Shown: piece after piece, positions 1,347-30,911 of the stretch
Numbering within the stretch: the stretch's first letter is position 1
Layout: every line of letters begins with the position of its first letter
Assembly: GCA_016196885.1 (NCBI GenBank)
Contig: JACPWU010000050.1
Location: 38,794-70,793 of the forward strand
From: Chlamydiota bacterium
GTDB taxonomy: Bacteria > Auribacterota > JACPWU01
Direction: 5' to 3'
Length of the DNA stretch: 32,000 nt
Position numbers and translations under genes: made by a program
Notes under the pieces: model-generated
Told to the model about the DNA's origin: nothing
The model's input: only the letters and a program-made list of their open reading frames with translations
Database searches by the model: none

Positions 1347-1686
1347 AATAATCTTTCGAGATCATCGTAGAGGACGAAAGTTCTCCCCATCATGCTTTTT
1401 TTGTAGTCGCCCGATTTATCCCCCCACCCAATCCAGCTGTTATCTTTAGCACGTTCGTAAGCTTATGACCCGTGCATTGATCGCTAAACAATCCCGCCAC
1501 CTTGGATAGATTGGGTGGGGGGATGAATCGGGCAGCCCCATAAATGGGGCGACTACAAAGAGTCCAAAATCCAAAAATCAAAATGCAAAATGACAATTCA
1601 AAAATTAAATTTTTTCAACGCAACAATATTAGAAACATTTTGGATTTTGGTATGTCATTTTGATGTTTGATGTTTGGATTTTTAAT
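1347..1686. repeat. Composite structured intergenic repeat, copy A (mraY/murD spacer)
   Basis: It shares long identical blocks with 7557-7856: ATCTTTCGAGATCATCGT, a 40-nt block GAAAGTTCTCCCCATCATGCTTTTTTTGTAGTCGCCCGAT, and a 28-nt block GGCAGCCCCATAAATGGGGCGACTACAA. An AT-rich heptamer hairpin follows at 1563-1686. Confidence 0.8.
1418..1524. mobile_element. 107-bp MITE-like element with perfect 16-bp terminal inverted repeats, nested in composite repeat copy A
   Basis: ATCCCCCCACCCAATC at 1418-1433 is the exact reverse complement of GATTGGGTGGGGGGAT at 1509-1524. The homologous position in copy B (7621-7634, CCCGATTCATCGGG) lacks the segment. Confidence 0.7.
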
Positions 1687-4256: not shown

Positions 4257-5738
4257 TCATTCCTGAAGACTGTACGCTACACGCTGTACGCTTTCTTTTA
4301 CCACAGCCACATCATCAAAGGGAATTTGAAAAGCACCGATTTGCTGAAATTTTTCATGCCCCTTTCCTGCAACCAAAACCACATCCCCACGTCTAGCCAA
4401 ATCGAGTGCCCTGTCAATCGCTGTGCGACGATCCGAAATCTTTTCAAAGGGAATTTTTTCCTCTGCCACACCCGCCTCAATTTCGCAAATAATCTTCTCA
4501 GGATCTTCGCTCCGTGGATTGTCCGAAGTGATAATGACAAAATCCGAAAAATGGGCGGCCGAGCACCCCATTTTAGGACGCTTCGAGCGATCTCGATCGC
4601 CCCCACATCCAAAGAGAGTGATCAAGCGCCCCTTCACCAAGGGTCTCAATGTTTCCAAAACATTACGAAGGGCCTCTTCGGTATGCGCGTAATCTACGAT
4701 CACCTGAAAGGGGGCATCCAGAGAAACAAATTCCATTCGGCCGGGAACATTCTTAAAATTTTCCAAACCTTCCTTGATTTTTTCTGGATACATTCCCAAT
4801 ACCCACCCAACTGCAAAGGCAGCCAGGGCATTGTAAACATTAAACCGCCCAATCAAAGGAAGTCTTAACGAAAGACTCCCATTCGGAAACACCACCTCAA
4901 AAGAACTCCCCCCCATATCGGATTCAAGATGACGAGCCTGAATCATGGCCCCTTGAGAAAGTCCATAGCTGATGAGTCGAGCCTTTGACAACGCCTCCAC
5001 CCTTGCACCCCAAGGATCGTCATGATTCACCACTGCGAAACCCTCTGGACTTAATAAATCTCTAAACAAAATCGCCTTGGCGGAAAAATAATTCTCTAAA
5101 TTTTGATGATAATCCAAATGATCCTGAGAAAGATTCGTGAAAACGGCAACATCAAAGGAAATACCGTCCAGCCGCCCTTGCCCAAGGGCATGGCTAGAGG
5201 CTTCTAGCACCACCGATTGAGAACCCTGATCTAACATGTCACGAAAATATTTTTGCAAGTCGAGTGACTCGGGCGTCGTTCTCTCAGCAGGGATCAAACG
5301 CCTTCCCATCTTGTAATAAACCGTTCCTAAAAGACCCGGATGATCCCCTCTTCCCCGTAGAAGAGATTCAATCAAAAAACTCACCGTCGTCTTCCCATTG
5401 GTCCCGGTCACTCCCACCACAGTTAAACCCTCAGCCGGATTTTCATAAAAGGCACAGGCCAACTGGGCCATGGCACGTCTGGCATCCTTCACCACAAAAC
5501 AAGAAACATTTTTAAATCTTATATTTTCATCTTCCACACACAACGCCACCGCACCGCGAGATACGGCATCCTCCGCGAAATCCTTCCCATCCCTCTTCTC
5601 GCCGCGCCAAGCGATAAAAAGATGCCCCGGCTCCACTTTTCTGGAATCGAAACTAATCCCGCTGATGAGAACATGCGGATCTCCGTGGAAGGATAAAATT
5701 TCAAGACCTTTGATTAAAGAAGACAATGATATATGCAT
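4257..5738 (-). CDS. murE: UDP-N-acetylmuramoyl-L-alanyl-D-glutamate--2,6-diaminopimelate ligase MurE
   Basis: FDSRKVEPGHLFIAWRG, GVTGTNGKTT and DNPRSEDP (the DNPR motif typical of mDAP-adding enzymes). The track ORF starts at 5804, but its first 22 codons are a translated heptamer repeat. ATG 5738 (MHISLSSLIKG) is the more likely start. Confidence 0.9.
   Translation of the reverse strand: MHISLSSLIKGLEILSFHGDPHVLISGISFDSRKVEPGHLFIAWRGEKRDGKDFAEDAVSRGAVALCVEDENIRFKNVSCFVVKDARRAMAQLACAFYENPAEGLTVVGVTGTNGKTTVSFLIESLLRGRGDHPGLLGTVYYKMGRRLIPAERTTPESLDLQKYFRDMLDQGSQSVVLEASSHALGQGRLDGISFDVAVFTNLSQDHLDYHQNLENYFSAKAILFRDLLSPEGFAVVNHDDPWGARVEALSKARLISYGLSQGAMIQARHLESDMGGSSFEVVFPNGSLSLRLPLIGRFNVYNALAAFAVGWVLGMYPEKIKEGLENFKNVPGRMEFVSLDAPFQVIVDYAHTEEALRNVLETLRPLVKGRLITLFGCGGDRDRSKRPKMGCSAAHFSDFVIITSDNPRSEDPEKIICEIEAGVAEEKIPFEKISDRRTAIDRALDLARRGDVVLVAGKGHEKFQQIGAFQIPFDDVAVVKESVQRVAYSLQE
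4270..4291. repeat. Single arm of the CGTACAG/CGTTCAG heptamer repeat family, inside the murE 3' end
   Basis: CTGTACGCTACACGCTGTACGC encodes the last residues (QRVAYS) of MurE. It is the same word family as 9350-9426, 10029-10122 and 21117-21146. Confidence 0.6.
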
Positions 5739-5743
5739 AAAAT

Positions 5744-5814
5744 TCCCAATACCAAATTTCCAATGACAATTTAATTTCCAATGATCCAATCTCCAATTGG
5801 ACATTTGTCATTGG
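5744..5814. repeat. CCAATGA/CCAATTGGACATT heptamer-hairpin repeat (ftsI/murE spacer)
   Basis: CCAATGACAA ... TTGTCATTGG forms a 10-bp stem around the palindrome TCCAATTGGA. It shares the core with 8310-8420 and 11529-11645. It overlaps the ftsI stop codon. Confidence 0.7.
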
Positions 5815-7529
5815 TTAGTATTTTCTTCCTCTCTCGCCAACATTCGATCGGGCACAACCTCTAAGTAACGCATCAATGCACTCGCCAACTCTTGAAAAGC
5901 AGGGGCCGCCACCGTCCCTCCATAATGAAAATGCTGAGGCTCATTGACGACCACCAAAATCACCGCCTCTGGATGATCTGCCGGCAAAAAACCAATAAAA
6001 GAAGAAACAAATTTAGAATGAGAATATCCACCCGCCGGATCCGCTTTCTGAGCCGTTCCTGTTTTCCCCGCCACAGAATATCCGTCTACACGGGCATTAT
6101 AACCTGTCCCCTGGGAGCTCACGACCCCTTTCATCGCCTCCACAATTTGATCCACTGTTTCTCGAGAAATCACGCGATCCTGTTTCTCTGTTAGATTTTC
6201 TAAAATCACATTCCCATCTCGATCCACAATTTTCCGAATCAATCGAGGTTTCACCAAAACGCCCCCATTCGCCAATGCACAATAAGCCCTCACCAACTGC
6301 ATGGCTGTCACCGTCATCTCCTGCCCCATCGGAATCATATAAGGCGAGAGCTTAGACCATTTGGAAAGAGGATGCAAGAGTCCCGATACTTCTCCCGGTA
6401 AATCCACTCCCGTCATACGCCCAAATCCAAATTTACTCATATAGTTATAAAGATTTTTCGCACCCAATCTGCATCCTATTTTGGCCATTCCAATGTTGCT
6501 GGACTTCGAAACGATCTCATGCACCGCCAGGGTCCCATAAGGATGAGCATCATGAAGGACATGCCCTCCCCCAATCGAAAAGGAGCCCTTCTCACAATAG
6601 AACCGATCCGAAAGTTTCACCACCCCCTCTTCCAAAGCGGCAGACACAATCAAAGGCTTCAAGGTGGACCCCGGCTCAAAAAAATCCGTCAGGGCTCGGT
6701 CGCGCCGCACATCCAGAGATGTCTTCGACGCTTGATTCACATCATAAGAAGGACGATTGACAAAGGCCAAAATATCTCCGCTTTTAGGATTCATCACAAC
6801 GAGGCTGGCGCTTTGAGGATTAAATTGCTCCATGACTTTATCCAATTGAGCCTCCGCCAATGTCTGAATGGTGGCATCAATCGTCAAAATCAAATCCAAA
6901 CCGTCTTGAGGTTCTACCTCAAAGCGCCTGGATGTCAACACCTCTCGGCCCGTAGCATCCTTCTCCGTCAGTCGCCATCCAGGTTTGCCCCTCAAGTAAC
7001 GATCAAACTTCAGTTCCAGCCCCTCCAAACCCTGATCATCTAATCCCGTAAAACCCAACACATGACCCAACAATTTCCCGCCTGGATAAACACGCCTGGA
7101 CTCCTCCAGCGTATAAATCCCAGGTAATTTGAGGGCAATCACCTCTGACGCTTTATCTGGCTCAATCTTGCGCTTAATCCAAACAAAATGTTTTTCTTTA
7201 GAGAAGCGTTTTAAAATTATTTTTCTATCTACATTCAGGGCCTTTGCCAAAACCTTGGCCACCTTTTCAGGGTCCTTGACTTGGGCAGGAACTGCATAAA
7301 AAGATTTCACAGGAACGCTGATCGCTAAATCCCGACCCTGGCAATCCACAATTTTCCCTCTTTTGGGAGGAAGTGGAATCGTCAAACGCTGCTGTTGGGA
7401 GGCCTTCTCCACAAAAAAATCGTGCCACAGCACCTGAAGAAAAAAAAGGCGAATCACCAAAATCGTCAAGGCACCCAAAAGAAAAATAGCCACTAGTAAA
7501 GAACGAAACTTATGCGTAAATTTGACCAT
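5808..7529 (-). CDS. ftsI: Penicillin-binding protein 3-like transpeptidase FtsI
   Basis: N-terminal TM helix, then STLKP (SxxK), SSN and KTGT motifs. AAGGAG lies 8 nt upstream of ATG 7529. dcw context. Confidence 0.9.
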   Translation of the reverse strand: MVKFTHKFRSLLVAIFLLGALTILVIRLFFLQVLWHDFFVEKASQQQRLTIPLPPKRGKIVDCQGRDLAISVPVKSFYAVPAQVKDPEKVAKVLAKALNVDRKIILKRFSKEKHFVWIKRKIEPDKASEVIALKLPGIYTLEESRRVYPGGKLLGHVLGFTGLDDQGLEGLELKFDRYLRGKPGWRLTEKDATGREVLTSRRFEVEPQDGLDLILTIDATIQTLAEAQLDKVMEQFNPQSASLVVMNPKSGDILAFVNRPSYDVNQASKTSLDVRRDRALTDFFEPGSTLKPLIVSAALEEGVVKLSDRFYCEKGSFSIGGGHVLHDAHPYGTLAVHEIVSKSSNIGMAKIGCRLGAKNLYNYMSKFGFGRMTGVDLPGEVSGLLHPLSKWSKLSPYMIPMGQEMTVTAMQLVRAYCALANGGVLVKPRLIRKIVDRDGNVILENLTEKQDRVISRETVDQIVEAMKGVVSSQGTGYNARVDGYSVAGKTGTAQKADPAGGYSHSKFVSSFIGFLPADHPEAVILVVVNEPQHFHYGGTVAAPAFQELASALMRYLEVVPDRMLAREEENTNQ

Positions 7530-7556
7530 AATGAATCTCCTTAAAATATCAATTTT

Positions 7557-7856
7557 AATGATCTTTCGAGATCATCGTGTGCGATGAAAGTTCTCCCCAT
7601 CATGCTTTTTTTGTAGTCGCCCGATTCATCGGGCAATCCGTGTGCACGGCAGCCCCATAAATGGGGCGACTACAAGGGCGATTTTCATCCTCCTTTGTGC
7701 CGACCTCAGTCGGCATGAATGTTTCATAGCAAAAATCAAAATGCAAAATTCAAAATGACAAATTAAAATTTAAAACAATCATGCAAGACTGAGAGTCAAT
7801 ATATTTTGATTTTTAATACGTCATTTTGATATTTAATTTTTAATTTTTGATTTTTT
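7557..7856. repeat. Composite structured intergenic repeat, copy B (ftsL/ftsI spacer)
   Basis: Same conserved blocks as copy A. The outer stem GTAGTCGCC/GGCGACTAC encloses three short hairpins (CCGA-TTCA-TCGG, CCGT-GTGC-ACGG, CCCCA-TAAA-TGGGG). There is an extra hairpin TGCCGAC-CTCA-GTCGGCA, and an AT-rich heptamer hairpin at 7731-7856. Confidence 0.8.
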
Positions 7857-8288
7857 CTAATCCATTCCCTTCCCTGCCACGCTTAGCAAAGACGCCGAAT
7901 CCAGACTCTCTTTCCCCCAATCAGAACTCATTAAATCATCTTCGTAAAACACAGGTTCCTCATGAAGCTTCACCACTTTCAACACATCTGACATCGCCAA
8001 ACCCAATCCCTCTTCCTCCGCCTTTATCATGATACGACTGGGCATTTTTAACGCCGAGAGATCCGTTTCCAAAGTTCTCTCATGCTTAGAAAGCTCTAAC
8101 GCCATTCTTTCCTTTTCCTTAATTTGATACCCCATCCGAACCACCTGCACGTTTTGCCACACGTAAAAAAGTGCCAAGAAAATTCCAAAAACCAAACAAA
8201 GAAAAGTTCTCACCACCACACTCCATCGCGTGACTCCGGCCTGTCTTCGTCTCGCCTTCAAATAGGCTTGACTGTAATAACGTCTCAT
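7857..8288 (-). CDS. ftsL: FtsL-like cell division protein (single TM plus coiled coil)
   Basis: Sits between rsmH and ftsI. It has one hydrophobic helix (VVVRTFLCLVFGIFLALFYVW) followed by a heptad-like segment. ATG 8288 has AAGGGGGTGA 5-7 nt upstream, and the longer track start at 8330 runs through the repeat. Sequence alone is weakly diagnostic. Confidence 0.6.
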   Translation of the reverse strand: MRRYYSQAYLKARRRQAGVTRWSVVVRTFLCLVFGIFLALFYVWQNVQVVRMGYQIKEKERMALELSKHERTLETDLSALKMPSRIMIKAEEEGLGLAMSDVLKVVKLHEEPVFYEDDLMSSDWGKESLDSASLLSVAGKGMD

Positions 8289-8309
8289 GAAAATCACCCC
8301 CTTTTTTTT

Positions 8310-8420
8310 ATGACCAATGACCCATTTCAAATGTCAAATGAATGGACAATGACCCGATGTTCAATTGGACATTGACTCATTGGAAATTCATTTGTTATTG
8401 GTCATTGGTCATTTGAAATT
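8310..8420. repeat. CCAATGA/TTGGTCA heptamer-hairpin repeat (rsmH/ftsL spacer)
   Basis: ATGACCAATGACCCATTTCAAATGTCAAATGAATGG pairs with CATTCATTTGTTATTGGTCATTGGTCAT. 7-nt periodicity is visible throughout. CAATTGGACATT core. Confidence 0.75.
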
Positions 8421-9330
8421 ATATTTTCTCTATCGCCCTTAACCTGGCACTCCTCGCTCTTCGATTCTCACGCACCTCTTCTGGAGAAGGTCTCAGAGGT
8501 TTACGCGTTAAAATTTTAACCACCCCAGACCCTCCAGATTCATCCCCCCCTTTGACAGAACAGCCTCTAAAAAACCGTTTCACCAAACCGTCCTCTAAAG
8601 AATGAAAAGAAATAACGACCCATCGTCCGCCTGACCTCAAGGCACGAAGCGCCTGAGGCAACACCTCTTCCAAGGCTCCCATCTCATCATTCACATAAAT
8701 TCTTAAGGCTTGAAAAACTCTCGTCGCCGGGTGAATTTTTTGATTTTGATAACGCCGTCCGATTGTTTTCTCAACCAGGTCAGCCAATTGAAAGGAATTC
8801 TGCAAAGGAAGTTGTCTTCGGGATTGAACAATGGCTCTTGCGATTTTGCGGGCATAACGCTCTTCGCCCAGATCAAAAAAAATTCGGCTCAGCTCCTCTT
8901 CACTTGAATCGCGCAACACTTCTCGAGCTGTACATCCCTTGGAAACATCCATTCTCATATCCAAAGGTCCCGAATTGGAAAAACTAAAACCACGCTCAAC
9001 ATCTTCTAATTGATAAGAGGAAAAGCCTAAATCCATCAGGATTGCGTCCACCTGACTTACTTGAAGAGATTTCAAATGGCTTTCTAAATTTCTAAAATTG
9101 CCATGAACCCATCGAATGTCATCATTGAAATCTCTCAAATTTTCCTTCGCAACTTCCAAGGTACGCTCGTCTTGATCCATAGCGATCAAACTCCCCCCTG
9201 GCAAAATTCCTTTTAAAATCTCCCTCGAATGACCTCCCAAACCAACGGTTGCATCCACCACGGTGCTTCCTGGCTTTAAATTCAGAAACTCCAATGCTTC
9301 TCTTAGAAAAACACTAACGTGCGTAAACAA
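8419..9330 (-). CDS. rsmH: 16S rRNA (cytosine1402-N4)-methyltransferase RsmH
   Basis: HVSVFLREALEFL..VVDATVGLGGHS and the DLGFSSYQLE motif. Apparent TTG start at 9330. Second gene of the dcw cluster. Confidence 0.9.
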   Translation of the reverse strand: MFTHVSVFLREALEFLNLKPGSTVVDATVGLGGHSREILKGILPGGSLIAMDQDERTLEVAKENLRDFNDDIRWVHGNFRNLESHLKSLQVSQVDAILMDLGFSSYQLEDVERGFSFSNSGPLDMRMDVSKGCTAREVLRDSSEEELSRIFFDLGEERYARKIARAIVQSRRQLPLQNSFQLADLVEKTIGRRYQNQKIHPATRVFQALRIYVNDEMGALEEVLPQALRALRSGGRWVVISFHSLEDGLVKRFFRGCSVKGGDESGGSGVVKILTRKPLRPSPEEVRENRRARSARLRAIEKI

Positions 9331-9349
9331 TGTTCAAACTCTTTTTAAA

Positions 9350-9426
9350 GCGTACAGCGTTCAGCGGACAGCGGACAGTTTGAAGGAACTTATTTTTCTG
9401 TCCGCTGTACGCTGAACGATGTACGC
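9350..9426. repeat. CGTACAG/CGTTCAG heptamer hairpin (mraZ/rsmH spacer)
   Basis: GCGTACAGCGTTCAGCGGACAGCGGACAG pairs with CTGTCCGCTGTACGCTGAACGATGTACGC around a ~19-nt loop. Confidence 0.75.
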
Positions 9427-9436
9427 CGAACGGTCC

Positions 9437-10028: not shown

Positions 10029-10122
10029 AGCGTTCAGCATTCAGCGTTCAGCGTTCAGCGTTCAGCGTTCAGAAAAAAACAAGCTCCTTTAAACTGTCGC
10101 TATACGCTGAACGCTGTACGCT
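10029..10122. repeat. Heptamer array hairpin between rnpB and the mraZ promoter
   Basis: AGCGTTC/AGCATTC occurs 6 times in tandem at 10029-10072. The complementary arm CTGTCGC TATACGC TGAACGC TGTACGC lies at 10094-10122. Confidence 0.8.
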
Positions 10123-10168
10123 CTATTTTATTGGGGTATTTTTCAGCTAGATTGAGTATATTATTAAT

Positions 10169-10561
10169 GAAGGGAGAGCCGGATGATCGCTCCGACGTAA
10201 CGTCGGAGAGGAAAGTCCGAACTCCACAGGGTGAAGTGACTTCTCGTAGAAGTCGGTCGAGCGCTTTTTAAATAAAGTTCAAGACCAGGGAAAGTGCCAC
10301 AGAGACAATACTACTTCGATGCAAATCGAAGGAAAGGTGAAAAGAGAAGGGATGTTCGAAAGAGCTACTCTTCTCTCCGATGAGTACAAGCTCTATCGGA
10401 GTGGAAAACCCCACTTGGAGCGAGATCAAATAAAAGACCGTGAGGTACCCGCCTCCCGTTGACTGAATCGACAGGTCTTGGGTAAGATCGCATAAGAGAA
10501 ATGATCATCACGGGCCGTCTAAAAACGGCCTGACAGAATTCGGCTTACAGGCTCTTCCTTC
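10169..10561 (+). ncRNA. rnpB: RNase P RNA, bacterial type A
   Basis: GAGAGGAAAGTCCGAAC (CR-I / P4 5' strand), ACAGAATTCGGCTTACAG (CR-V / P4 3' strand) and AGGGAAAGTGCCACAGAGA. The P1 stem GAAGGGAGAGCC pairs with GGCTCTTCCTTC. Confidence 0.85.
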
Positions 10562-10567
10562 ATTTTT

Positions 10568-11528: not shown

Positions 11529-11645
11529 CTCAAATTTCCAATGACCCATTCCCAATGTCAAATGAATGACCCATGACTCAATATCCAATTGGACATTCGA
11601 TCATTGGAAATTAACTTGTCATTGGCAATTGAGAATTGGAAATGA
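11529..11645. repeat. CCAATGA/CCAATTGGACATT heptamer-hairpin repeat (gcvPB/ligase spacer)
   Basis: Shares CCAATGACCCATT, AATGTCAAATGAATG, CAATTGGACATT and TCATTGGAAATT with 8310-8420. Confidence 0.75.
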
Positions 11646-11651
11646 TCAAAG

Positions 11652-16798: not shown

Positions 16799-16872
16799 TG
16801 GGCAACGCTGGGCTCGAACCAGCGACCCCTACCGTGTGAGGATAGTGCTCTAACCAACTGAGCTAGTTGCCC
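16799..16872 (-). tRNA. tRNA-Val (anticodon CAC)
   Basis: The minus strand GGGCAACTAGCTCAGTTGGTTAGAGCACTATCCTCACACGGTAGGGGTCGCTGGTTCGAGCCCAGCGTTGCCCA folds as a cloverleaf. 7-bp acceptor stem, GTTCGAGC T-loop, anticodon loop CT-CAC-AC. No CCA is encoded. Confidence 0.9.
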
Positions 16873-17333: not shown

Positions 17334-17381
17334 GCAAAGCCCCTTCTTTAAGATTGAACAAATGAGAGAACATTCTACCAT

Positions 17382-17476
17382 AAAAAGCAGGGAATAGGGT
17401 GTAGGGATTAGGGTATAGGGAACAATGTTCTTAATTAAAATCATTATTTCCCTAAACCCTACACCCTATTCCCTGC
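17382..17476 (-). terminator. TAGGGTA-type heptamer hairpin plus T-run downstream of tRNA-Met (putative intrinsic terminator)
   Basis: GCAGGGAATAGGGTGTAGGGATTAGGGTATAGGGAA pairs with TTCCCTAAACCCTACACCCTATTCCCTGC. On the minus strand the hairpin is followed by TTTTT (17386-17382). Confidence 0.5.
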
Positions 17477-17482
17477 ATTTCA

Positions 17483-17555
17483 TGGGCCCACTAGGATTTG
17501 AACCTAGGACCAATGGATTATGAGTCCACTGCTCTAACCGCTGAGCTATGGGCCC
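17483..17555 (-). tRNA. tRNA with anticodon CAT (elongator Met or lysidine-modified Ile2)
   Basis: The minus strand GGGCCCATAGCTCAGCGGTTAGAGCAGTGGACTCATAATCCATTGGTCCTAGGTTCAAATCCTAGTGGGCCCA folds as a cloverleaf. G1-C72 is paired and there is no GGG/CCC anticodon stem, so it is not an initiator. Confidence 0.85.
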
Positions 17556-17650
17556 GAAAAAAGTAGGGCATAGGGTATAGGGCTCAGGGCTTAGGGAAAA
17601 AATAAATAAACAACCTTACCCCAAACCCTACTCCCTACACCCTATGCCCT
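17556..17650 (-). terminator. TAGGGTA-type heptamer hairpin plus T-run downstream of rpoD (putative intrinsic terminator)
   Basis: GTAGGGCATAGGGTATAGGGCTCAGGGCTTAGGG pairs with CCCCAAACCCTACTCCCTACACCCTATGCCCT. On the minus strand it is followed by TTTTTT (17562-17557), immediately before the tRNA 5' end. Confidence 0.5.
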
Positions 17651-17656
17651 GAATTT

Positions 17657-19369: not shown

Positions 19370-21109
19370 TTACATTTTCTTAAGCGTTGCAATTTCTTTC
19401 TGAAGTCCTTGCAGCTCAACTAAAATAACGCCGATTTGAGCTGAATTCTTCCCTGATTCTTCAAGCCTTTTTAATTCCTGAGTCAAATTCAGACATTTTT
19501 TATCGTAAGTCCTTAATTTAAAGGTAGTTATATAATCAGAAAGAACTTTTTCTGGATTCTGGAAAGAAAATTTTTCCACCAGAAGACTGCTCAGAATACC
19601 TTGAAATCGAGGATCAGACAGCAAAGAATCGGCACCTTTATTCTCTAACATATTCTGAAGCAATAACTTATAATCTTCAAATTCAAAATCCTCTGGTTTA
19701 ACTTCTCCCCTGACCTTCTCAAAAAGCCTTGAGTCCGACAAAATAAGCTTCAAAAGCCCCTTTTCTAAAGCACAGGGTCCTGGCAATTGGGAAGGATCCT
19801 TTTCTCCAGAACGAAACTCTGACCTCGCTGGCTTGATACCCTTTATTTCTTCCCGCAAAGACTGTTCAGAAATCTTTAGCCTTTGACTTAAAAGCTGAAG
19901 ATAATGATCTTGAAGCACCGCATTTTTAATGCGACTCAGGATCGGCAAAATTTCTCGTGCGATTTTCAGTTTTGAAACCTCATCCTGTGAGGGATGACGA
20001 TTCATGAGAATACCGATTTTAAAATCAATCATGGAGGGAGACTCCTGAATCAGCTTTAGGAAAGCCTCTTTTCCGTTTTTTCGAATCCACGTATCCGGAT
20101 CATCCCCTTCAGGAATCTGTGCAATTTTGACAATCATGTCCTGACCGAGAAAAACTTCTAAGGCCCGAAGAGAGGCCTCGACCCCTGCCCTGTCTCCGTC
20201 GTAAGCAACCACAACGCCTTGGGCAAAGCGCCGTAAGATTCGGACATGATTTTCATTGAAGGCGGTTCCGAGGGAGGCCACCACATTTTCAACACCTGCC
20301 TCATACACATGGATCATGTCCATGTAGCCTTCGACCAAAATCACCCGAGACTCTTGAAGAATGGCCCTTTTGGCCAAATGAAGGCCGTAGAGCAATTGGC
20401 TTTTATTGAATAACGGGGTTTCGGGAGAATTTAAATACTTGGGCATCTGGTCCCCCAGCGCACGGCCTCCAAAGCCCACAACTCTGGCCTGGGCATCCAT
20501 GATGGGGAACATAATCCTTCCTTTGAAGCGGAGATTTTTTCCGCCCCCACCTGGGCCTGTCACACCCACGCGCTCCAAGAGTTTTTCCTCGAGCCCCAAT
20601 CGCTGAAATTCTTTCAGCACCTCCGTCTCCCTCAAAGGGCAATAACCCATTCGAAAGGTTTCAACCATTTTTTTATTCACCCCTCTTGCCTTAAGATAAT
20701 TCCTCGCCTCAGCGGCCTCTTCTGTGAAGAGGGATCTCTGAAAAAAGTGGGCCACCTTTTCTGCAACGTCAAAGAGCTGTTTCTTTTGAAATTCTCCCGA
20801 TCCCTCCTTTACTTTTGAGATGACCACACCCGCCTTTTCTGCCAGGATTTCCACAGCCTCAGGGAAACCGATGTTCTCATATTTCATCAAGAAGCTAAAA
20901 ACATTGCCTCCCGCTCCACAACCGAAGCAGTGAAAAATCCCCTTCTCAGGATTCACCATAAAGGAAGGCGTTTTCTCAGGATGAAAAGGGCACAAGGCCT
21001 TGTAATTGCGCCCAGCCCCTTTGAGCGGCACATATTGTGCAATCAACTGCACAATATCCACCTTGAGCTGGATCTGGGAAAGTGTACTTTCAGGAATTAA
21101 TTCAGACAT
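19370..21109 (-). CDS. dnaG: DNA primase DnaG
   Basis: CPFHPEKTPSFMVNPEKGIFHCFGCGAGGN zinc finger and a Toprim segment VILVEGYMD. ATG 21109 (MSELIPE) fits the family N-terminus. The track start at 21163 reads through a repeat arm. Confidence 0.9.
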   Translation of the reverse strand: MSELIPESTLSQIQLKVDIVQLIAQYVPLKGAGRNYKALCPFHPEKTPSFMVNPEKGIFHCFGCGAGGNVFSFLMKYENIGFPEAVEILAEKAGVVISKVKEGSGEFQKKQLFDVAEKVAHFFQRSLFTEEAAEARNYLKARGVNKKMVETFRMGYCPLRETEVLKEFQRLGLEEKLLERVGVTGPGGGGKNLRFKGRIMFPIMDAQARVVGFGGRALGDQMPKYLNSPETPLFNKSQLLYGLHLAKRAILQESRVILVEGYMDMIHVYEAGVENVVASLGTAFNENHVRILRRFAQGVVVAYDGDRAGVEASLRALEVFLGQDMIVKIAQIPEGDDPDTWIRKNGKEAFLKLIQESPSMIDFKIGILMNRHPSQDEVSKLKIAREILPILSRIKNAVLQDHYLQLLSQRLKISEQSLREEIKGIKPARSEFRSGEKDPSQLPGPCALEKGLLKLILSDSRLFEKVRGEVKPEDFEFEDYKLLLQNMLENKGADSLLSDPRFQGILSSLLVEKFSFQNPEKVLSDYITTFKLRTYDKKCLNLTQELKRLEESGKNSAQIGVILVELQGLQKEIATLKKM

Positions 21110-21116
21110 AGGAAAT

Positions 21117-21146
21117 AGCGTACAGCGTATAGCGTTCAGCGGACAG
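21117..21146. repeat. Single arm of the CGTACAG/CGTTCAG heptamer family (cvpA/dnaG spacer)
   Basis: AGCGTACAGCGTATAGCGTTCAGCGGACAG. No complementary arm is nearby. Confidence 0.6.
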
Positions 21147-21174
21147 AAAAAATCCATCCTCATTGAAACTGTTC

Positions 21175-25875: not shown

Positions 25876-26602
25876 CAAAAAGAAAGCGATCAGAAAAAAA
25901 ATAACTCCCCCAAGCCCTAACTCCCCAGGCCCCTCTTTGAAAAAAAGAGGGGGGACCCTCCCTTTCAGTTTAATCCCACAGGGACTAGAAAATCTTGAGG
26001 GGAGTTGGAGGGGTTATGAGAGTGATCTATTTTCTTTTGAAACTTCTAAAAAAAAATCATCCGGGCTAACCCTGATCGAACTTTTGCTCGTCATTTCTAT
26101 CATGGGCCTTCTTGTTTTTTTAGCGCTCCCAACGCTTTCAAAGTTTGGAAGTAACATACGACTCAAAAGTGCATCAGAACAGGTATCCAGTCTCTTTCGG
26201 ATGGCTCGGCTCTTGGCTACCACAAAAAATATCACGACTTCTGTTTTTATTTACACCCGAGAGGCGGAGCTTCCTAATCATATTTTCATTACAGGTGCAG
26301 GAGGACAATTGGAAAAGGTTTGGGTGGCTCCCTCTTTGATTGAAATTCCGGATGTTTCAGGCAACATCGGTCTTCAAACCGCCTCCTTCACTTCTTTCGG
26401 AACCACGAGCGCCATCTCGCTTCATCTTATTCAAAAGGGCACACTCATCAATGGAAATCCTTATGATGCGAGCGGGACATACGGAAGCTTGAGCAAAGCC
26501 GAACGGGTCAAATGTCAAACCGTCACCACAGACAATAACACCGGCCGGGCCAGAGTTTACGCTTATGGGAGGAATGCGCCATGGGCAAGTACGGATCTTT
26601 AA
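25856..26602 (+). CDS. GspH/FimT-like minor pseudopilin with an unusually long (~70 aa) leader
   Basis: SSG/LTLIELLLVISIMGLLVFLALP, then SASEQVSSLFRMARLLA. There is no ATG/GTG/TTG in frame between the repeat and the cleavage motif. ATG 25856 has GGAGG at -5. The track start at 25748 lies deep inside the upstream gene. Confidence 0.65.
   Translation: MTLLIGDKKKAIRKKITPPSPNSPGPSLKKRGGTLPFSLIPQGLENLEGSWRGYESDLFSFETSKKKSSGLTLIELLLVISIMGLLVFLALPTLSKFGSNIRLKSASEQVSSLFRMARLLATTKNITTSVFIYTREAELPNHIFITGAGGQLEKVWVAPSLIEIPDVSGNIGLQTASFTSFGTTSAISLHLIQKGTLINGNPYDASGTYGSLSKAERVKCQTVTTDNNTGRARVYAYGRNAPWASTDL
25902..26016. mobile_element. 115-nt variant of the TAAC...GTTA palindromic element inside the GspH-like leader
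   Basis: The left end TAACTCCCCCAAGCCC and right end GAGGGGAGTTGGAGGGGTTA match the 72-nt element. The interior differs and has a CCCCTCTT-TGAAAAAA-AGAGGGG hairpin. Confidence 0.6.
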
Positions 26603-27114
26603 AAGCAGGGTCATGGATCATGGGTCATGGGTTAACAAAAAAAGAAAGTTTCATGTTTCATGTTTCATGTTTCATGTTACTCACAACTCACGACTCACGA
26701 CTCACGACTAAAAAAGGCTTTACCCTTTTCGAAATCGTCATCGCCTTAGGAATCCTGGCCATTGGTATCTTAGGAATTCTGGCGCTTTTTCCTGTGGGGC
26801 TGGATGCTCAAAAAAGGGCGATGGATTATGGCAACATGGCCAATTTGGCAGAATGGAAAATGGCTGACATTTATTATCGAAGCCATCTCTCAGGATTTGA
26901 TAACAGTTTGACCGCGGCTCTAGATTATCCAACCAGTGGACCGGATCCTGCGCCTTTCACACAAAATTCAAAATATTTATGGCATTATTCGGTTTCTCAA
27001 CCTTTTGTGAGCACCCTTCCTGATTTTTACCGCGTGGATTTAGAAATTTATTCGGTCGAAGATACGTCAAACTCCATCGAAAAGGTGGTGAATTATTTTG
27101 AAAAACCAAACTAA
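26581..27114 (+). CDS. GspI/PilV-like minor pseudopilin
   Basis: KKG/FTLFEIVIALGILAIGILGILALFPVGL. ATG 26581 is preceded by GGGAGGA at 8 nt. Internal in-frame ATGs at 26653 and 26674 lie inside a heptamer array. Confidence 0.7.
   Translation: MGKYGSLKAGSWIMGHGLTKKESFMFHVSCFMLLTTHDSRLTTKKGFTLFEIVIALGILAIGILGILALFPVGLDAQKRAMDYGNMANLAEWKMADIYYRSHLSGFDNSLTAALDYPTSGPDPAPFTQNSKYLWHYSVSQPFVSTLPDFYRVDLEIYSVEDTSNSIEKVVNYFEKPN
26608..26710. repeat. Three consecutive heptamer arrays inside the GspI-like leader
   Basis: GGGTCAT GGATCAT GGGTCAT, then GTTTCAT x4 perfect (26649-26676), then GTTACTC ACAACTC ACGACTC ACGACTC ACGACTA in the same 7-nt register. Confidence 0.85.
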
Positions 27115-27913
27115 AATAACTGTCGTGCGTCGTGGGCCATCTATCATCCATCATCCATCATCTACTCATGGCTTTTCCATGATCGAACTTCTCGCCGCTA
27201 TGTCTGTTTTTATCATCATGGCTTTTGCCCTGTATGTCGTTTTCGATCGCGTTAATCTCGTGTGGAAACATGGAGAGTACAAGGCAGATCAATATCAGAA
27301 TGCCCGAAATGTTTTGGACATGATGGCTCGAGAATTAACTTCCGCTGTGATTGCTGTCGGAGGACCTAATGCCTTTTCAAACAATGTTTATGGCCCTGCC
27401 TATTTATGGAGTGTTGATGGCCAGGGAGGAAGTGATTACGACCAAGATCAAATCTTTTTCATTTTTGCCAGGGACAACGCACTTCGTGAAGTAGGTTACT
27501 ACATCAACGACCAAACCACAGGTGTGGGAAACACAACGGCCGCAGATGATGTTTTGATGCGGGCCTACACCAGTGATACAAACACCGATTTTGACATCAC
27601 CTCGACTGGCACTTCTTTTGGTTCTTACGACGACACAGGTTTTAAAATCACGGATCTCAACTTTAATTTTATTTATCAGAACGGTGGCAATTATACCCGC
27701 ACCGATGTCTGGGACAGTCGAATGGATTATACCAGCGCTTCAAGCACTTCTACGACCGTTGATGATGGAAAATTGCCTGATTTTATCGAGATTTCGATTC
27801 GCGTCGTAGACCAAGAAATTTTGGAAAAAGATGGGATCTCTCCGCCTCAAAAAGATCGCAAGGAATTTAAAATCATGGTCCCGATGAATCAGAGGAGTTT
27901 TAGAAATGAATAG
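27098..27913 (+). CDS. GspJ/PulJ-like minor pseudopilin
   Basis: HG/FSMIELLAAMSVFIIMAFALYVVF, then QYQNARNVLDMMARELTSA. TTG start at 27098 with AAGGTGG upstream. Overlaps the previous stop by 17 nt. Confidence 0.7.
   Translation: MKNQTKITVVRRGPSIIHHPSSTHGFSMIELLAAMSVFIIMAFALYVVFDRVNLVWKHGEYKADQYQNARNVLDMMARELTSAVIAVGGPNAFSNNVYGPAYLWSVDGQGGSDYDQDQIFFIFARDNALREVGYYINDQTTGVGNTTAADDVLMRAYTSDTNTDFDITSTGTSFGSYDDTGFKITDLNFNFIYQNGGNYTRTDVWDSRMDYTSASSTSTTVDDGKLPDFIEISIRVVDQEILEKDGISPPQKDRKEFKIMVPMNQRSFRNE
27120..27170. repeat. Heptamer array inside the GspJ-like leader
   Basis: CTGTCGT GCGTCGT GGGCCAT CTATCAT CCATCAT CCATCAT CTACTCA, translated as TVVRRGPSIIHHPSSTH. Confidence 0.7.
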
Positions 27914-30911
27914 AATCAATACTCAAAATGAATTAACTCCCCCAACCCCTCTTAACCTAAGAGGGGAGAACCTCTCCCCTTATTTAAGGGGAGTTGGAGG
28001 GGTTACATCTTTTCAAACAGGCGCCGCCCTCATCTTAGCTCTCGGCATCCTCGCTCTCATCACGGTGCTCGCCATTTCTTTCGCGACGCTCATGCGCTTT
28101 GAAGAAAAGAGTGCGCGGCAATCGCTTTATCTCATTGAAGCACGGCAAATGGCGGCCGCGGGACTCCAATACGCGATTGCCATTTTGGAAAAGGATTTAA
28201 CGGAGGATGAGGGCGGAACCACTTCCACCTCGTTAGGCGGTCCGTCGCTGTATGATTCCCTCGATGAAGAATGGGCAACGCTTTTTACGGGGAGTGACAC
28301 TGATTTAGATGGGGACGGCAACAACGATTCCAAATGGATTTACATTCATGAAGATGCTGACGGGACGGGGCCTGTGATTGGACGATATGCAGTTTTGATT
28401 CAAGACGAGGCAGGCAAAGTAAACTTGAATGTGGCTGGGAATGGCTCTCAAAACGAGGGATGGTCCCCTTATGAACTCGACATGTCGGCCCTCCCTGACA
28501 TTGGCTCCACAAAAGCCGATGCCATTCTGGATTATCGCAGGGGAACAGATATTGTGAATGGGGCAGATGCCTCTGAACTTCCTCTTGAGGGAGATGACAA
28601 TGACAATAACATTTCTTTAAGCGCAGATGGGATTGACAACAATGCCACTGCGGGGGCTGACGAAATCAACGAAGGGGCCAATGATCCAACCGAGTTTGAC
28701 CCTGAGATCCCTTATGAGGATGACCGCCCCTTTGCGTCATTGGAGGAACTTTCAAAAGTGAATGGCATTGGCTCGGATACCATTAACAACATCAGAGATG
28801 AGGCAACCGTCAATAGTCTTGACACAAATCAATATTGGAATGGCTCTTCCTGGCTCAGAAAAATCAATTTAAACCATCTTCTTTCTACATCCCAACTTTA
28901 CAGTCTGACTCTCACCACCACGAATGAAAAATATCGCCTTTCGGCGAACATGATAGACTACGCGGATCGAGATATTTATCCGACTTTCACCACGACGACG
29001 GTGAGTGCACCTGACGCAAGCAACTCCTACATGGGCGTGGAAGGCCTGCAAATCAATGAGATCATGAATAATCCTTCTTCCACCTCTATCGCCCGCACAG
29101 AGGCCCAAAGCACCTTGTCAGGTCAGGGGGCGTGGAATCAACAGAGCGGCTATGACGAGGGCAATAGCACAGATGATATAGGTCAATGGAGCTGGCCCTG
29201 GGACAATGGCCCTTATTGGATTTCGGTAGACGAAACCAATGGTTCCAATATCACGATTGATGGTCAGGCGATCAGCGATCCTTCCAGTTTCACACGCGTG
29301 ATTATTTCTGGAGAAGCGATTGATCTTTCCATCACCGATGCCCAAGAGTCCACTCCCCCCCAACAGTTGGCGACCTTCACACAGATCAACATTATGAGTG
29401 GAAAATATATCGAGATCATTAACATCAGCCAAAGAGCGATCACGATTGATTGCACGGGAAGCGATGCCTGGAAACTGGCCCTGGGAGGCACGGTCAATTT
29501 TCCGACGCTCAATCGAGATGGTTTACCAGGAACCGTAAGCGGAGCAACTTATTCTCTTTCTTTAGACGCGACAGGATCAACTGCGAGTGACATCACCCTC
29601 TCAGGTCTTCAATCCAGTACCAGCCCCCCAACCTATGATTATCTCATCATCGCAGACAGCGCTCACGCCCTGGATGAACTCTACGGCGGTGACGGAGACG
29701 GAGCCTGGAGTGGTTCTGGATCAGAACCGGGTCATGTGATTACGAATGGAGACTTGGCAAATGAATTAGCTTCTTCAGGAGTGGATTTGGCTCTGGTTAA
29801 TTCTAACGATGAAGTGATCGCTTATGTTCCCGCAAGTGCCACGAATTATCACATTGCGGCCTACGGAGGCCCCAGTACGGCTGGACAAAGTATGTCACGA
29901 GTTTCTGCGGTGGATGAAACAGGCAGTTGGAACAGTTGGACCTATTCTCCAGGTACCGACAATGACAACGCGAACAACGATATCACTTCTTCAGGTGCTC
30001 GCTATTGGTCCATCAAAGACCGCCCTTACTCAACCATCGGAGAATTGAGCGATGTCTTTCTTGGAACATCCCATAACGGAACCTACAATATCGAAAGCAG
30101 CAGTGCCAGCAGCTTCTTCGACAAAATCACCATCGCAGCCAAAAGATTAGAAGCTGAAGACGCCGACAGCATTCTCTGGTCGAGTTGGGAATCTGCGAGT
30201 GACAATGACGGCACCACCCGTTACATCGCAGGAAGCAACACAGCCAGCGCCACCTGGACTTGGACATTTGATATCACAGATAGCAGTGATATCACAAATC
30301 CCTTCAGGCTTCGCGAAAATACAGGCTTTGACGTTCTGGTTTATAGCCAATTCGCAAGGGATTTCCAATCTCCGAGTGGTGAAGACCGCTTTGTGAGGCC
30401 AAACCACAGCGTCGCCGTTGACTCCGAGACTGTCACCAGCAATCGCATCAGTATCCCCATCATAGGAAACGGAAGCGACACTCCCAAACTGGATTATATT
30501 GTCCTAACCCCAGAGCCCTATACTTATGGACGAATCAACATCAACACGGCTTCTCAAGATGCACTCATGAGTTTACCGGGGATCGCGTCTTCACTATCGA
30601 GCAACATTATTTCTTATCGCGAAACCGATCCCTTCAATCAAATTCAGGAAATCACGAGTGCTTCAAGTGTCGGAGAATCTACTTTCGAACCCATTTCCAA
30701 TCTCATCACGGTCCGAAGCGATGTGTATCGCATCATCATACGTTCCGAGCGCATCATGGACATTGACGGCGACGGGATTGAAAACGATCCCAGTGATTCA
30801 TCCGTTTCTACGGCCAGTCTTGACACCATCGTAGACCGCAATCCGACTCTGCGATTTCCGGGAACCTCCAACCGCTATCGGATTGAGTTTCAGAAATACA
30901 GATATGAATAG
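27906..30911 (+). CDS. Giant (1001 aa) GspK-like minor pseudopilin with large inserted modules
   Basis: GAGGAG lies 9 nt upstream of ATG 27906. It has an N-terminal hydrophobic segment GAALILALGILALITVLAISFA. GspK-like hallmarks are GRYAVLIQDEAGKVNLNVAG and the C-terminal GRININTASQDALMSLPGIASSLSSNIISYRE...VRSDVYRIIIRSE. About 550 aa of insert lies between them. Confidence 0.75.
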   Translation: MNRINTQNELTPPTPLNLRGENLSPYLRGVGGVTSFQTGAALILALGILALITVLAISFATLMRFEEKSARQSLYLIEARQMAAAGLQYAIAILEKDLTEDEGGTTSTSLGGPSLYDSLDEEWATLFTGSDTDLDGDGNNDSKWIYIHEDADGTGPVIGRYAVLIQDEAGKVNLNVAGNGSQNEGWSPYELDMSALPDIGSTKADAILDYRRGTDIVNGADASELPLEGDDNDNNISLSADGIDNNATAGADEINEGANDPTEFDPEIPYEDDRPFASLEELSKVNGIGSDTINNIRDEATVNSLDTNQYWNGSSWLRKINLNHLLSTSQLYSLTLTTTNEKYRLSANMIDYADRDIYPTFTTTTVSAPDASNSYMGVEGLQINEIMNNPSSTSIARTEAQSTLSGQGAWNQQSGYDEGNSTDDIGQWSWPWDNGPYWISVDETNGSNITIDGQAISDPSSFTRVIISGEAIDLSITDAQESTPPQQLATFTQINIMSGKYIEIINISQRAITIDCTGSDAWKLALGGTVNFPTLNRDGLPGTVSGATYSLSLDATGSTASDITLSGLQSSTSPPTYDYLIIADSAHALDELYGGDGDGAWSGSGSEPGHVITNGDLANELASSGVDLALVNSNDEVIAYVPASATNYHIAAYGGPSTAGQSMSRVSAVDETGSWNSWTYSPGTDNDNANNDITSSGARYWSIKDRPYSTIGELSDVFLGTSHNGTYNIESSSASSFFDKITIAAKRLEAEDADSILWSSWESASDNDGTTRYIAGSNTASATWTWTFDITDSSDITNPFRLRENTGFDVLVYSQFARDFQSPSGEDRFVRPNHSVAVDSETVTSNRISIPIIGNGSDTPKLDYIVLTPEPYTYGRININTASQDALMSLPGIASSLSSNIISYRETDPFNQIQEITSASSVGESTFEPISNLITVRSDVYRIIIRSERIMDIDGDGIENDPSDSSVSTASLDTIVDRNPTLRFPGTSNRYRIEFQKYRYE
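27934..28005. mobile_element. 72-nt palindromic element, copy 2, in frame in the GspK-like N-terminus
   Basis: TAACTCCCCCAACCCCTCTTAACCTAAGAGGGGAGAACCTCTCCCCTTATTTAAGGGGAGTTGGAGGGGTTA. It is translated as LTPPTPLNLRGENLSPYLRGVGGV, in the same phase as in murD. Confidence 0.8.

Follow-up and report, generated by a model that had tools for sequence, protein, structure and literature searches.

The window analysed here is a stretch of 32,000 nucleotides (nt) from a Chlamydiota bacterium (assembly GCA_016196885.1, contig JACPWU010000050.1, positions 38,794 to 70,793 of the forward strand) that contains, twice within its division and cell wall (dcw) gene cluster, a hairpin-rich composite element of about 330 nt. 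An original prediction took this element for either a structured RNA or a recently mobile composite repeat. We now consider it very probable that the composites are mosaics, each built up from small repeated DNA elements in an intercistronic gap, and not dedicated RNA elements. Judged by its sequence, the core of the composite is a head-to-head heterodimer of two repetitive extragenic palindromic (REP) units of the GTAG type, akin to REPINs (REP doublets forming hairpins) and bacterial interspersed mosaic elements (BIMEs), in a lineage where such elements are hardly described.

The dcw genes of the window run on the minus strand in the order mraZ (9886-9437), rsmH (9330-8419), ftsL (8330-7857), ftsI (7529-5808), murE, murF, mraY (2784-1687) and murD (from 1335). 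Copy A of the composite (1337-1686) fills the gap from the mraY stop (1687) to the murD ATG (1335-1333), and copy B (7530-7856) fills that from the ftsL stop (7857) to the ftsI ATG (7529), both of them the stop-to-start gaps that had been predicted. The double occurrence was likewise reproduced, with a repeat search pairing 1341-1420 with 7551-7630 (80 nt, 90% identity) and with exact blocks of 40 nt (1376-1416 and 7586-7626; 0 matches in 100 shuffles), 28 nt (1531-1558 and 7648-7675, 100%) and 18 nt (1351-1368 and 7561-7578), none of which is expected by chance, given that shuffles produced no match. The AT-rich arms at the end of the composite are 82% (1565-1609 and 7730-7774) and 75% (1637-1692 and 7803-7858) identical between the copies, and the alignment agrees with the claim that the modules follow each other in the same order in A and B. 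On either strand, the folding energy of both composites is well below that of shuffled sequences (z -5.8 to -9.0), the predicted RNA folds reaching -98 and -74 kcal/mol (z about -7). The window sequence was recovered in independent assemblies, namely JACOUD010000081.1, from the metagenome-assembled genome (MAG) GCA_016178005.1, and two Logan contigs.

The multi-helix junction described by the original prediction, closed by GTAGTCGCC/GGCGACTAC and containing a CCCCA-TAAA-TGGGG hairpin, is present where it had been placed, but its arms are two inverted, GTAG-tagged REP units and not an RNA junction. From outside inward, the plus-strand reading of the junction is GTAGTCGCC-CGATTCATCG-GGC and the minus-strand reading is GTAGTCGCC-CCATTTATGG-GGC. 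Each unit, REP 'a' (GTAGTCGCCCCATTTATGGGGC) or REP 'b' (GTAGTCGCCCGATTYATCGGGC), consists of an unpaired GTAG, 2-3 bases, a perfect 7-bp stem of the form GCCCSAT/ATSGGGC (S = G or C) and a TC or TT (TY) loop. GTAG opens all four units of the window (1403 and 7613 on the plus strand, 1556 and 7673 on the minus strand), the tags point outward in both dimers, and both dimers are extragenic, lying between co-directional dcw genes. The parts of the two dimers are the following.

1403 to 1420, plus strand: 5' part of copy A REP 'b', GTAGTCGCCCGATTTATC, with the GTAG tag, the left stem and the loop; 19 of 22 positions agree with the consensus GTAGTYGCCCNATTYATNGGGC
1523 to 1533, plus strand: 3' part of copy A REP 'b', ATGAATCGGGC, closing the CCCGAT/ATCGGG stem
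1535 to 1556, minus strand: copy A REP 'a', GTAGTCGCCCCATTTATGGGGC; 22 of 22 positions agree with the consensus, 6 of 6 stem pairs
7613 to 7634, plus strand: copy B REP 'b', GTAGTCGCCCGATTCATCGGGC, intact; 22 of 22 positions agree with the consensus, 6 of 6 pairs
7635 to 7651, no strand: spacer of the copy B dimer, 17 nt, with a small hairpin CCGTGTGCACGG, from the alignment
7652 to 7673, minus strand: copy B REP 'a', GTAGTCGCCCCATTTATGGGGC, matching the consensus

REP 'a' of copy A is identical to units in six loci from other assemblies (L001 to L005 and L009), and the REP 'b' unit of copy B also flanks a transposase gene in L005, described below. The spacer of copy B agrees in length and position with the dimers of L001, L002, L003, L005 and L009, and the minimum-energy fold of this dimer is a single long hairpin (DNA -22.4 kcal/mol, z -6.0; RNA -42, z -7.4). 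In copy A, the spacer is 1 nt and one of the units is split by a nested palindrome of 103 nt. A literature search for GTAGTCGCC returned unrelated primer sequences only.

To follow the units outside the window, the 21-mer CCCCATAAATGGGGCGACTAC was scanned over one genome per species. Among the matches listed, at least five MAG contigs carry it, with the labels Actinomycetota, Nitrospinota (two contigs), Doudnabacteria and Peregrinibacteria. Four of these five listed contigs have the full a-spacer-b dimer in an intergenic position, which in L003 begins 14 nt past a stop codon, and the fifth, L004, has a single REP 'a' unit. The GC content of the five loci is 38-58%, or 37-61% together with the transposase loci below. 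In 16 distinct units from 10 loci, a set pre-filtered for pairing, GTAG never varies, and at four of the six stem pairs both partners have changed, a value reached by none of 500 shuffles; the stem variants are CCCGAT/ATCGGG, CCCAAT/ATTGGG, CCCCAT/ATGGGG, TCCGAT/ATCGGA and CTCGAT/ATCGAG. The original prediction had named many near-identical copies at random positions, with no covariation, as the mark of a plain miniature inverted-repeat transposable element; copies of the REP core do occur at unrelated positions, but the REP stems covary across lineages. Carriage of these REPs by phages is not prominent, the scan of viral contigs giving no match for REP 'a' and two contigs for REP 'b'.

The same units accompany genes for REP-associated tyrosine transposases (RAYTs). 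In L005, the contig labelled Peregrinibacteria, several REP units lie around an open reading frame (ORF) of 166 aa (1695-2195) that matches Pfam Y1_Tnp (1e-10), has REP_Tyr_transpos as its best NCBIfam family, and finds its best match in the PDB in 4ER8, the E. coli TnpA_REP (1.2e-6), ahead of IS200-type transposases. REP_Tyr_transpos is the top-scoring family for 10 of 10 homologues as well, and among the many metagenome homologues of the L005 protein, several are named "REP element-mobilizing transposase RayT" by JGI. We examined five RAYT loci, namely L005, L009 (an 83%-identical RAYT in a "Chlamydiae bacterium" MAG), L013 (a JGI metagenome), L014 (a MAG labelled WOR-3) and L015 (a RAYT protein cluster that NCBI labels Zixibacteria). 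Units of the form GTAGYYGCCCNATTYATNGGGC flank the RAYT in all five, and RAYTs with such REPs reach down to about 54% identity. The whole-genome shotgun prefix of L009, JACOUC, neighbours the window's JACOUD, which suggests that L009 and the JACOUD MAG came from the same submission.

Two further features of the RAYT loci can be noted. The RAYTs at L009 4001-4480, L013 2501-2926 and L015 2501-2914 are co-oriented within conserved operons and bracketed by REP dimers, the settings being trpB/trpA, gcvT/gcvH and carboxyltransferase/biotin carboxylase. In one RAYT subclade, a REP-like 22-mer (GTAG plus hairpin) lies in frame inside the transposase's own ORF, where it encodes VVA(Q/R)FI(G/E); it is found at L009 4115-4136, L013 2618-2639, L014 2633-2654 and, on the minus strand, L005 2081-2060. 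This hairpin covaries, with GCTCAAT/ATTGAGC in L014, and the 22-mer may be an autoregulatory site or a REP origin.

The arrangement in the window and in these loci has clear counterparts in other bacteria. As described by Di Nocera et al. 2013 (PMC3733652), GTAG REPs have stems of mostly 6-9 bp, often TY loops, and a preference for head-to-head dimers of the same or different units; they occur in the Planctomycetes-Verrucomicrobia-Chlamydiae superphylum and flank RAYT genes. For the systems of E. coli, S. maltophilia and Marinomonas, REPs are known to be bound and cleaved as single-stranded DNA by their cognate RAYT, and in vitro work on how GTAG and single-stranded DNA are recognised is reported (PMC8266576). 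The unpaired 5' GTAG, the short perfect stem and the TY loop of the window units are those of GTAG REPs and of the E. coli REP-BIME elements with their TnpA_REP (PMC3733652; PMC3479197; PMC8266576), and the inverted heterodimer with GTAG outside, extragenic between co-directional genes, is that of the Y and Z REPs of E. coli BIMEs. As in a REPtron, the same units flank a Y1/HUH RAYT in related loci, and as in the REPINs of Pseudomonas and enterobacteria (Bertels & Rainey 2011, PMC3116915), the inverted pair makes one long, non-autonomous hairpin and goes with a single REP-flanked RAYT. A REPIN is defined as a pair of REPs in inverted orientation with less than 130 nt between them, and REPIN-RAYT systems are regarded as lineage-specific and vertically inherited (10.1101/2021.07.10.451892).

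There are differences from the known systems as well. Unlike the E. coli REPs, the window REPs have a stem without a bulge, and their sequence fits none of the 24 published GTAG families, as far as these can be set apart by the text descriptions of PMC3733652. In contrast to published REPIN-RAYT systems, near-identical 22-mers extend across the whole GC range given above and across several phylum labels, and one subclade carries the REP-like 22-mer inside its RAYT ORF. The hosts here are all uncultivated (Chlamydiota-labelled, candidate phyla radiation (CPR), Nitrospinota, WOR-3 and Zixibacteria). The joining of a REP dimer to an unrelated palindromic repeat is reminiscent of the GTAG-15 dimers found within long palindromes in Anabaena variabilis and of the Pseudomonas REPs fused to unrelated stem-loops (PMC3733652), but the partners here are an AT-rich heptamer hairpin and a block of 60 nt, and the association that is regular in those genomes is represented here by two composite copies.

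By analogy with the systems already studied, it can be hypothesized that another part of the genome encodes a tyrosine (HUH) transposase of the RAYT/TnpA_REP type, which would recognise the single-stranded hairpin together with its GTAG, then cut nearby (at CT in the studied enzymes; PMC8266576) and rejoin the DNA in trans, letting the dimers spread. The AT-rich hairpin would be a member of the genome-wide inverted heptamer arrays that directly follow stop codons, and the left block, at the other end of the composite, would be a third repeat, so far seen only beside these two REP dimers; left block and dimer may have been copied together from gap to gap or may form part of a larger mobile unit of this genome. 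Copy A would later have gained the 103-nt palindrome inside one of its REP hairpins. In E. coli, REP hairpins are barriers to 3'-5' exonucleases and can reduce the expression of downstream cistrons. A side effect of the insertions would be very stable hairpins at the ftsL/ftsI and mraY/murD junctions of the dcw mRNA, which, if they act as in E. coli, should hinder 3'-5' decay and uncouple or lower the expression of the downstream cistrons.

Several observations weigh against this interpretation. No RAYT gene was found in the 32-kb window, where tblastn matched REP-derived tails only, and the REP_Tyr_transpos score of the L005 protein is 71 bits, below the curated cut-off of 80. The units of the covariation set had been filtered for pairing; without that filter, all stem pairs form in 34 of 41 listed units. 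The taxonomic labels of MAGs may err for short contigs, such as L005 at 4.3 kb, and mis-binned MAGs could inflate the apparent taxonomic spread; the base-composition range argues for genuinely different hosts. REP biology offers no explanation for the left block, which is about 60 nt long, includes 20 nt of the exact 40-nt block and has no relative in the searched data. The composites face the same way with respect to the operon and are both located in the dcw cluster, as would be equally expected of a functional RNA element. The window holds two dimers in 32 kb, where REPs of this kind are expected in tens to hundreds of dispersed copies per genome, and the fact that contigs of three assemblies stop inside the elements fits repeats, yet these two copies alone could cause such breaks.

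The left block is the module in which the two composites are hardest to interpret, and it consists of the following.

1341 to 1402, no strand: copy A left block, 90% identical to 7551-7612, adjoining the murD start
7551 to 7612, no strand: copy B left block, with a 7-bp TTCG hairpin (7557-7574), a variable patch, the GAAAGTTCTCCCCATCATGC block and a T7 run

In copy A, the corresponding parts are the TTCG hairpin at 1347-1364, the variable patch at 1369-1377, GAAAGTTCTCCCCATCATGC at 1376-1395 and the T7 run at 1396-1402, the last Ts of which belong to the REP consensus TTTGTAG. The Shine-Dalgarno sequence (AAGGAG) and ATG of ftsI, at 7529-7545, are outside the copy B repeat. The TTCG hairpin had been predicted with 7 bp in both copies; this is so in copy B, but in copy A there is one mismatch. 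Nor does the second short hairpin, which was thought to differ in sequence and still be able to pair, stand up well. The variable patch is 9 nt long and reads GTAGAGGAC in one copy and GTGTGCGAT in the other, that of copy B making CATCG-TGTG-CGATG, and since its pairing partners differ between the copies, no conserved helix is shown. Except for the TTCG hairpin, the left blocks have no helix in common, and they have no Rfam relative and no promoter or terminator signature. By blastn-short, the left block is absent from L001-L009 and from the three relatives compared below (L010, L012 and L016), its 20-mer has no match in JGI metagenomes or IMG/VR, and only the two known copies appear in the window when 3 mismatches are allowed. 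Blastn of one composite copy against the PLSDB plasmids and of the other against the INPHARED phages gave no match either. The recently mobile composite repeat of the original prediction is borne out for the REP core, with its units in unrelated genomes and flanking RAYTs, whereas for the left block either of the two predicted readings may apply.

At the other end of each composite, the predicted AT-rich heptamer hairpin was found, with inverted period-7 arms in both copies. The features of this end are listed here.

1563 to 1682, no strand: copy A AT-rich hairpin, inverted period-7 arrays (CAAAATN)n with arms at 1566-1616 and 1632-1682
7676 to 7729, no strand: spacer specific to copy B, with a hairpin GCCGACCTCAGTCGGC at 7694-7719 and no counterpart in copy A
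7730 to 7849, no strand: copy B AT-rich hairpin with arms at 7730-7775 and 7804-7849, 78% complementary, of period 7/14 by Tandem Repeats Finder (TRF)

The copy A hairpin begins 4 nt after the mraY stop, has arms that are 76% complementary, and has a predicted energy of -31 to -33 kcal/mol on either strand (TRF period 7/14); that of copy B begins 7 nt after the ftsL stop, and the two have a 20-nt exact stretch in common. The spacer specific to copy B had no match elsewhere by blastn-short, and its hairpin GCCGACCTCAGTCGGC is terminator-like in a consensus scan on the plus strand only. Period 7 or 14 was seen in 23 of the 31 tandem arrays of the window (TRF), including 1563-1611, 1659-1676, 7729-7769 and 7805-7855, and at least four heptamer families (AGCGTWC, TAGGGNN, CCAATGA and CAAAATN) form hairpins a few nt past stop codons in many gaps, so that the AT-rich module is a general feature of this genome. 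A similar CAAAATG array is found in L009, about 100 nt from its REP cluster.

Other heptamer arrays of the window lie at 4268-4294, 5737-5805, 8308-8424, 9346-9430, 10029-10125, 11532-11646, 17378-17485, 17563-17656 and 21108-21167, with two more inside ORFs (26608-26709 and 27138-27162). They are mostly inverted and make long hairpins, also around tRNA-Met, and their density is lower in L009 and L012. In their period of 7, their intergenic position and their several sequence families, they resemble the short tandemly repeated repetitive sequences of cyanobacteria and the TAACTGA repeats of Beggiatoaceae (MacGregor 2015, PMC4679880), but the window heptamers are mostly inverted pairs after stop codons, whereas the TAACTGA repeats are direct and mostly just upstream of start codons (PMC4679880).

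The insertion that splits REP 'b' of copy A is a palindrome in itself.

1420 to 1522, no strand: nested 103-nt palindromic insertion of copy A, inside the REP 'b' hairpin

Its 14-nt terminal inverted repeats, CCCCCCACCCAATC (1420-1433) and GATTGGGTGGGGGG (1509-1522), are exact inverted copies, found within the window solely at these two arms, and they lengthen the REP stem of copy A to arms of 36 nt. The insertion is absent from copy B and from all other REP dimers examined. An NCBI contig terminates precisely at its outer edge, at window position 1419. In the NCBI assembly of the same population (L006 11228-11249), there are 22 extra nt, GTTATGAAAGCGAGGCTTATTT, at the outer border of REP 'a' (window 1557/1558), while the 11.4-kb overlap is otherwise identical. 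In L009, a sequence similar to this segment lies on the 5' side of REP 'a'. We considered the extra segment as a cleavage footprint of a RAYT and rejected this; because slippage between the 4-nt TTGT direct repeats explains it equally well, the indel is not counted as RAYT activity. The Logan contig L007 (5937-5975), from another sample, differs from window 1590-1640 by about 10 substitutions and 6 indels and is otherwise identical over 6 kb. All of these differences fall toward the apex of the AT-rich hairpin in copy A, just before the contig end; they reflect either strain variation restricted to the loop or a contig chimeric with another hairpin, a third one of similar sequence. In other genomes, REP dimers adjoin or sit inside CCCCTCC...GGAGGGG palindromes (L002 2440-2660, L003 6470-6510 and L004 2960-3000), the L002 dimer being apparently nested in the loop of one, which suggests that different small palindromic repeats nest in each other repeatedly.

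How the two composites came to be alike over three modules could also be explained by a local segmental duplication or gene conversion of the whole cassette (hairpin, REP dimer and left block) between the two gaps, 6.2 kb apart, without a transposase, in which case the left block would be a former spacer or leader that hitch-hiked. We regard this as a serious possibility, though on balance a doubtful one. All three modules are common to the copies in the same order and orientation, the left block is found solely in these two copies, and identity drops by module (REPs 100%, left block 90%, AT-rich arms 75-82%). On the other hand, other heptamer-hairpin families of the window are also multicopy, at 65-92% identity, without REPs, and the similarity of the AT-rich arms therefore needs no joint duplication; moreover, the spacers between modules differ, at about 7 nt in A and 55 nt in B. 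A duplication would in any case be compatible with a mosaic of small repeats and does not exclude it.

Going further than the mosaic itself, one may imagine a REPIN-RAYT system of unusual conservation and horizontal mobility, given its spread over uncultivated bacteria of at least five labelled phyla and 37-61% GC, its company with RAYTs seated inside operons (trpB/trpA, gcvT/gcvH) and the REP copy within the RAYT ORF of one subclade. In the genome of the window, the REP dimer would have joined the 60-nt block, and perhaps also the heptamer hairpin, to make a larger composite mobile unit that targets intercistronic gaps and reshapes the expression of an essential operon. We think this unlikely; if true, it would contradict the published picture of REPIN-RAYT systems as lineage-specific and inherited vertically.

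The RNA reading of the original prediction, in which the whole composite of about 330 nt would be a cis-acting element of the dcw mRNA that tunes the ftsL:ftsI and mraY:murD ratios through processing, stability or attenuation, possibly from co-opted repeats, has become decidedly improbable. It would account for two copies in the same orientation, both intercistronic and in one essential operon, and for the very stable RNA folds given above; the left block, directly before start codons, could influence translation, and REP hairpins have been proposed to work at the RNA level in other bacteria (PMC3733652). Against it stands the comparison with the orthologous gaps of three relatives (L010, L012 and L016, about 75% MraY identity).

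Window: ftsL/ftsI gap of 327 nt, mraY/murD gap of 351 nt
L010: ftsL/ftsI gap of 29 nt, mraY/murD gap of 182 nt
L012: ftsL/ftsI gap of 100 nt, mraY/murD gap of 108 nt
L016 (mraY/murD junction only): mraY and murD overlapping by 4 nt

Neither the REPs nor the left block occur in the gaps of L010, L012 and L016, whose spacer sequence is unrelated, and the mraY/murD gap of L012 contains a different heptamer hairpin. Since the orthologous gaps are without the element, and in one relative mraY and murD overlap, it is a lineage-specific insertion and not a conserved part of the operon. In addition, the REP modules recur in unrelated contexts in many genomes, the variable patch retains no common helix, and neither folding energy nor G-U content clearly sets one strand of the composite modules apart, the strands folding about equally and the G-U pairs being without strand bias. 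Promoter and terminator scans of both gaps gave no mRNA-strand site inside the shared blocks, the consensus scan found no intrinsic terminator on the minus strand in either gap, and the run that follows the REP dimer on the mRNA is A7 and not U7. Rfam 15, run over the whole window, gave nothing relevant at the gathering score and matched neither element; at E<=10 on both elements, the matches were weak, mostly to eukaryotic microRNA and small nucleolar RNA models far below their gathering scores, and fell on the AT-rich hairpins and other segments. The prediction had recognised no named RNA family, which agrees with this result, yet the REP core belongs to a named class of DNA repeat. A hammerhead or other small ribozyme, considered on account of GAUGA and GAAA motifs, was rejected, with no Rfam ribozyme match at E<=10 and the needed helices absent.

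Very little speaks for the left block encoding or regulating a short upstream ORF of 20-25 codons, MMGRTF(VLY/IAH)DDLER(L/S)LKL..., that would couple translation to murD or ftsI by termination-reinitiation across the structured spacer: an ATGATG-initiated ORF does exist on the mRNA strand in both copies, its end falling 17 nt within murD in copy A and at the Shine-Dalgarno sequence of ftsI (TAAGGAG) in copy B, murD has no visible Shine-Dalgarno, and the mraY/murD overlap in a relative suggests ancestral coupling, but the short ORF lacks a Shine-Dalgarno of its own, 5 of 5 nucleotide differences in the patch alter amino acids with no evident purifying selection, and there are just the two sequences, with no known homologues.

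Some other features of the locus deserve mention. Among the closest MraY homologues that carry names, the first are labelled Chlamydiae/Chlamydiota and the next Omnitrophica, and in two relatives the dcw cluster closes with ftsQ and then RNase HII, ftsA and ftsZ being absent, in keeping with the Chlamydiota label. The window has a class A RNase P RNA on the plus strand at 10171-10563, immediately upstream of mraZ, and a tRNA-Val (CAC) on the minus strand at 16799-16872 by ARAGORN, which is missing from the Rfam run at gathering scores, where tRNA-Met (17483-17555) was the one tRNA found. An 81-nt palindromic element with G/C runs occurs at 465-545 (murD, minus strand) and, with 93% identity, at 27925-28005 (start of a 1001-aa ORF, plus strand), with a partial arm at 25995-26016. 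It is in frame in both coding sequences, giving ...LTPPTPLN(I/L)RGE..SPYLRGVGGV... in MurD and in the N-terminus of the 1001-aa ORF, and in this it is like the in-frame Rickettsia palindromic elements and the intragenic REPs described in PMC3733652. A metagenome scan with its 22-nt arm gave one partial copy, downstream of a gene, on a Hainich groundwater contig (L019).

Returning to the mosaic of small repeats as the preferred interpretation, the practical meaning is that the two gaps should carry the label of REP/REPIN-type repeats and not that of a riboswitch or small-RNA candidate, and the presence of such repeats in the gaps would explain why assemblies of this population break there. Systems of GTAG REPs and RAYTs would extend to MAGs labelled Chlamydiota, CPR, Nitrospinota, WOR-3 and Zixibacteria, with a remarkably constant REP sequence, and if the taxonomic labels hold, this constancy bears on whether such systems are always inherited vertically. 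For the organism itself, an essential operon that is normally tightly coupled accommodates 330 nt of very stable hairpins in two of its gaps, where relatives have a 4-nt overlap of mraY and murD or a 29-nt gap between ftsL and ftsI, and these dcw gaps are thus a natural test case for the effects of REP insertion on polycistronic expression.

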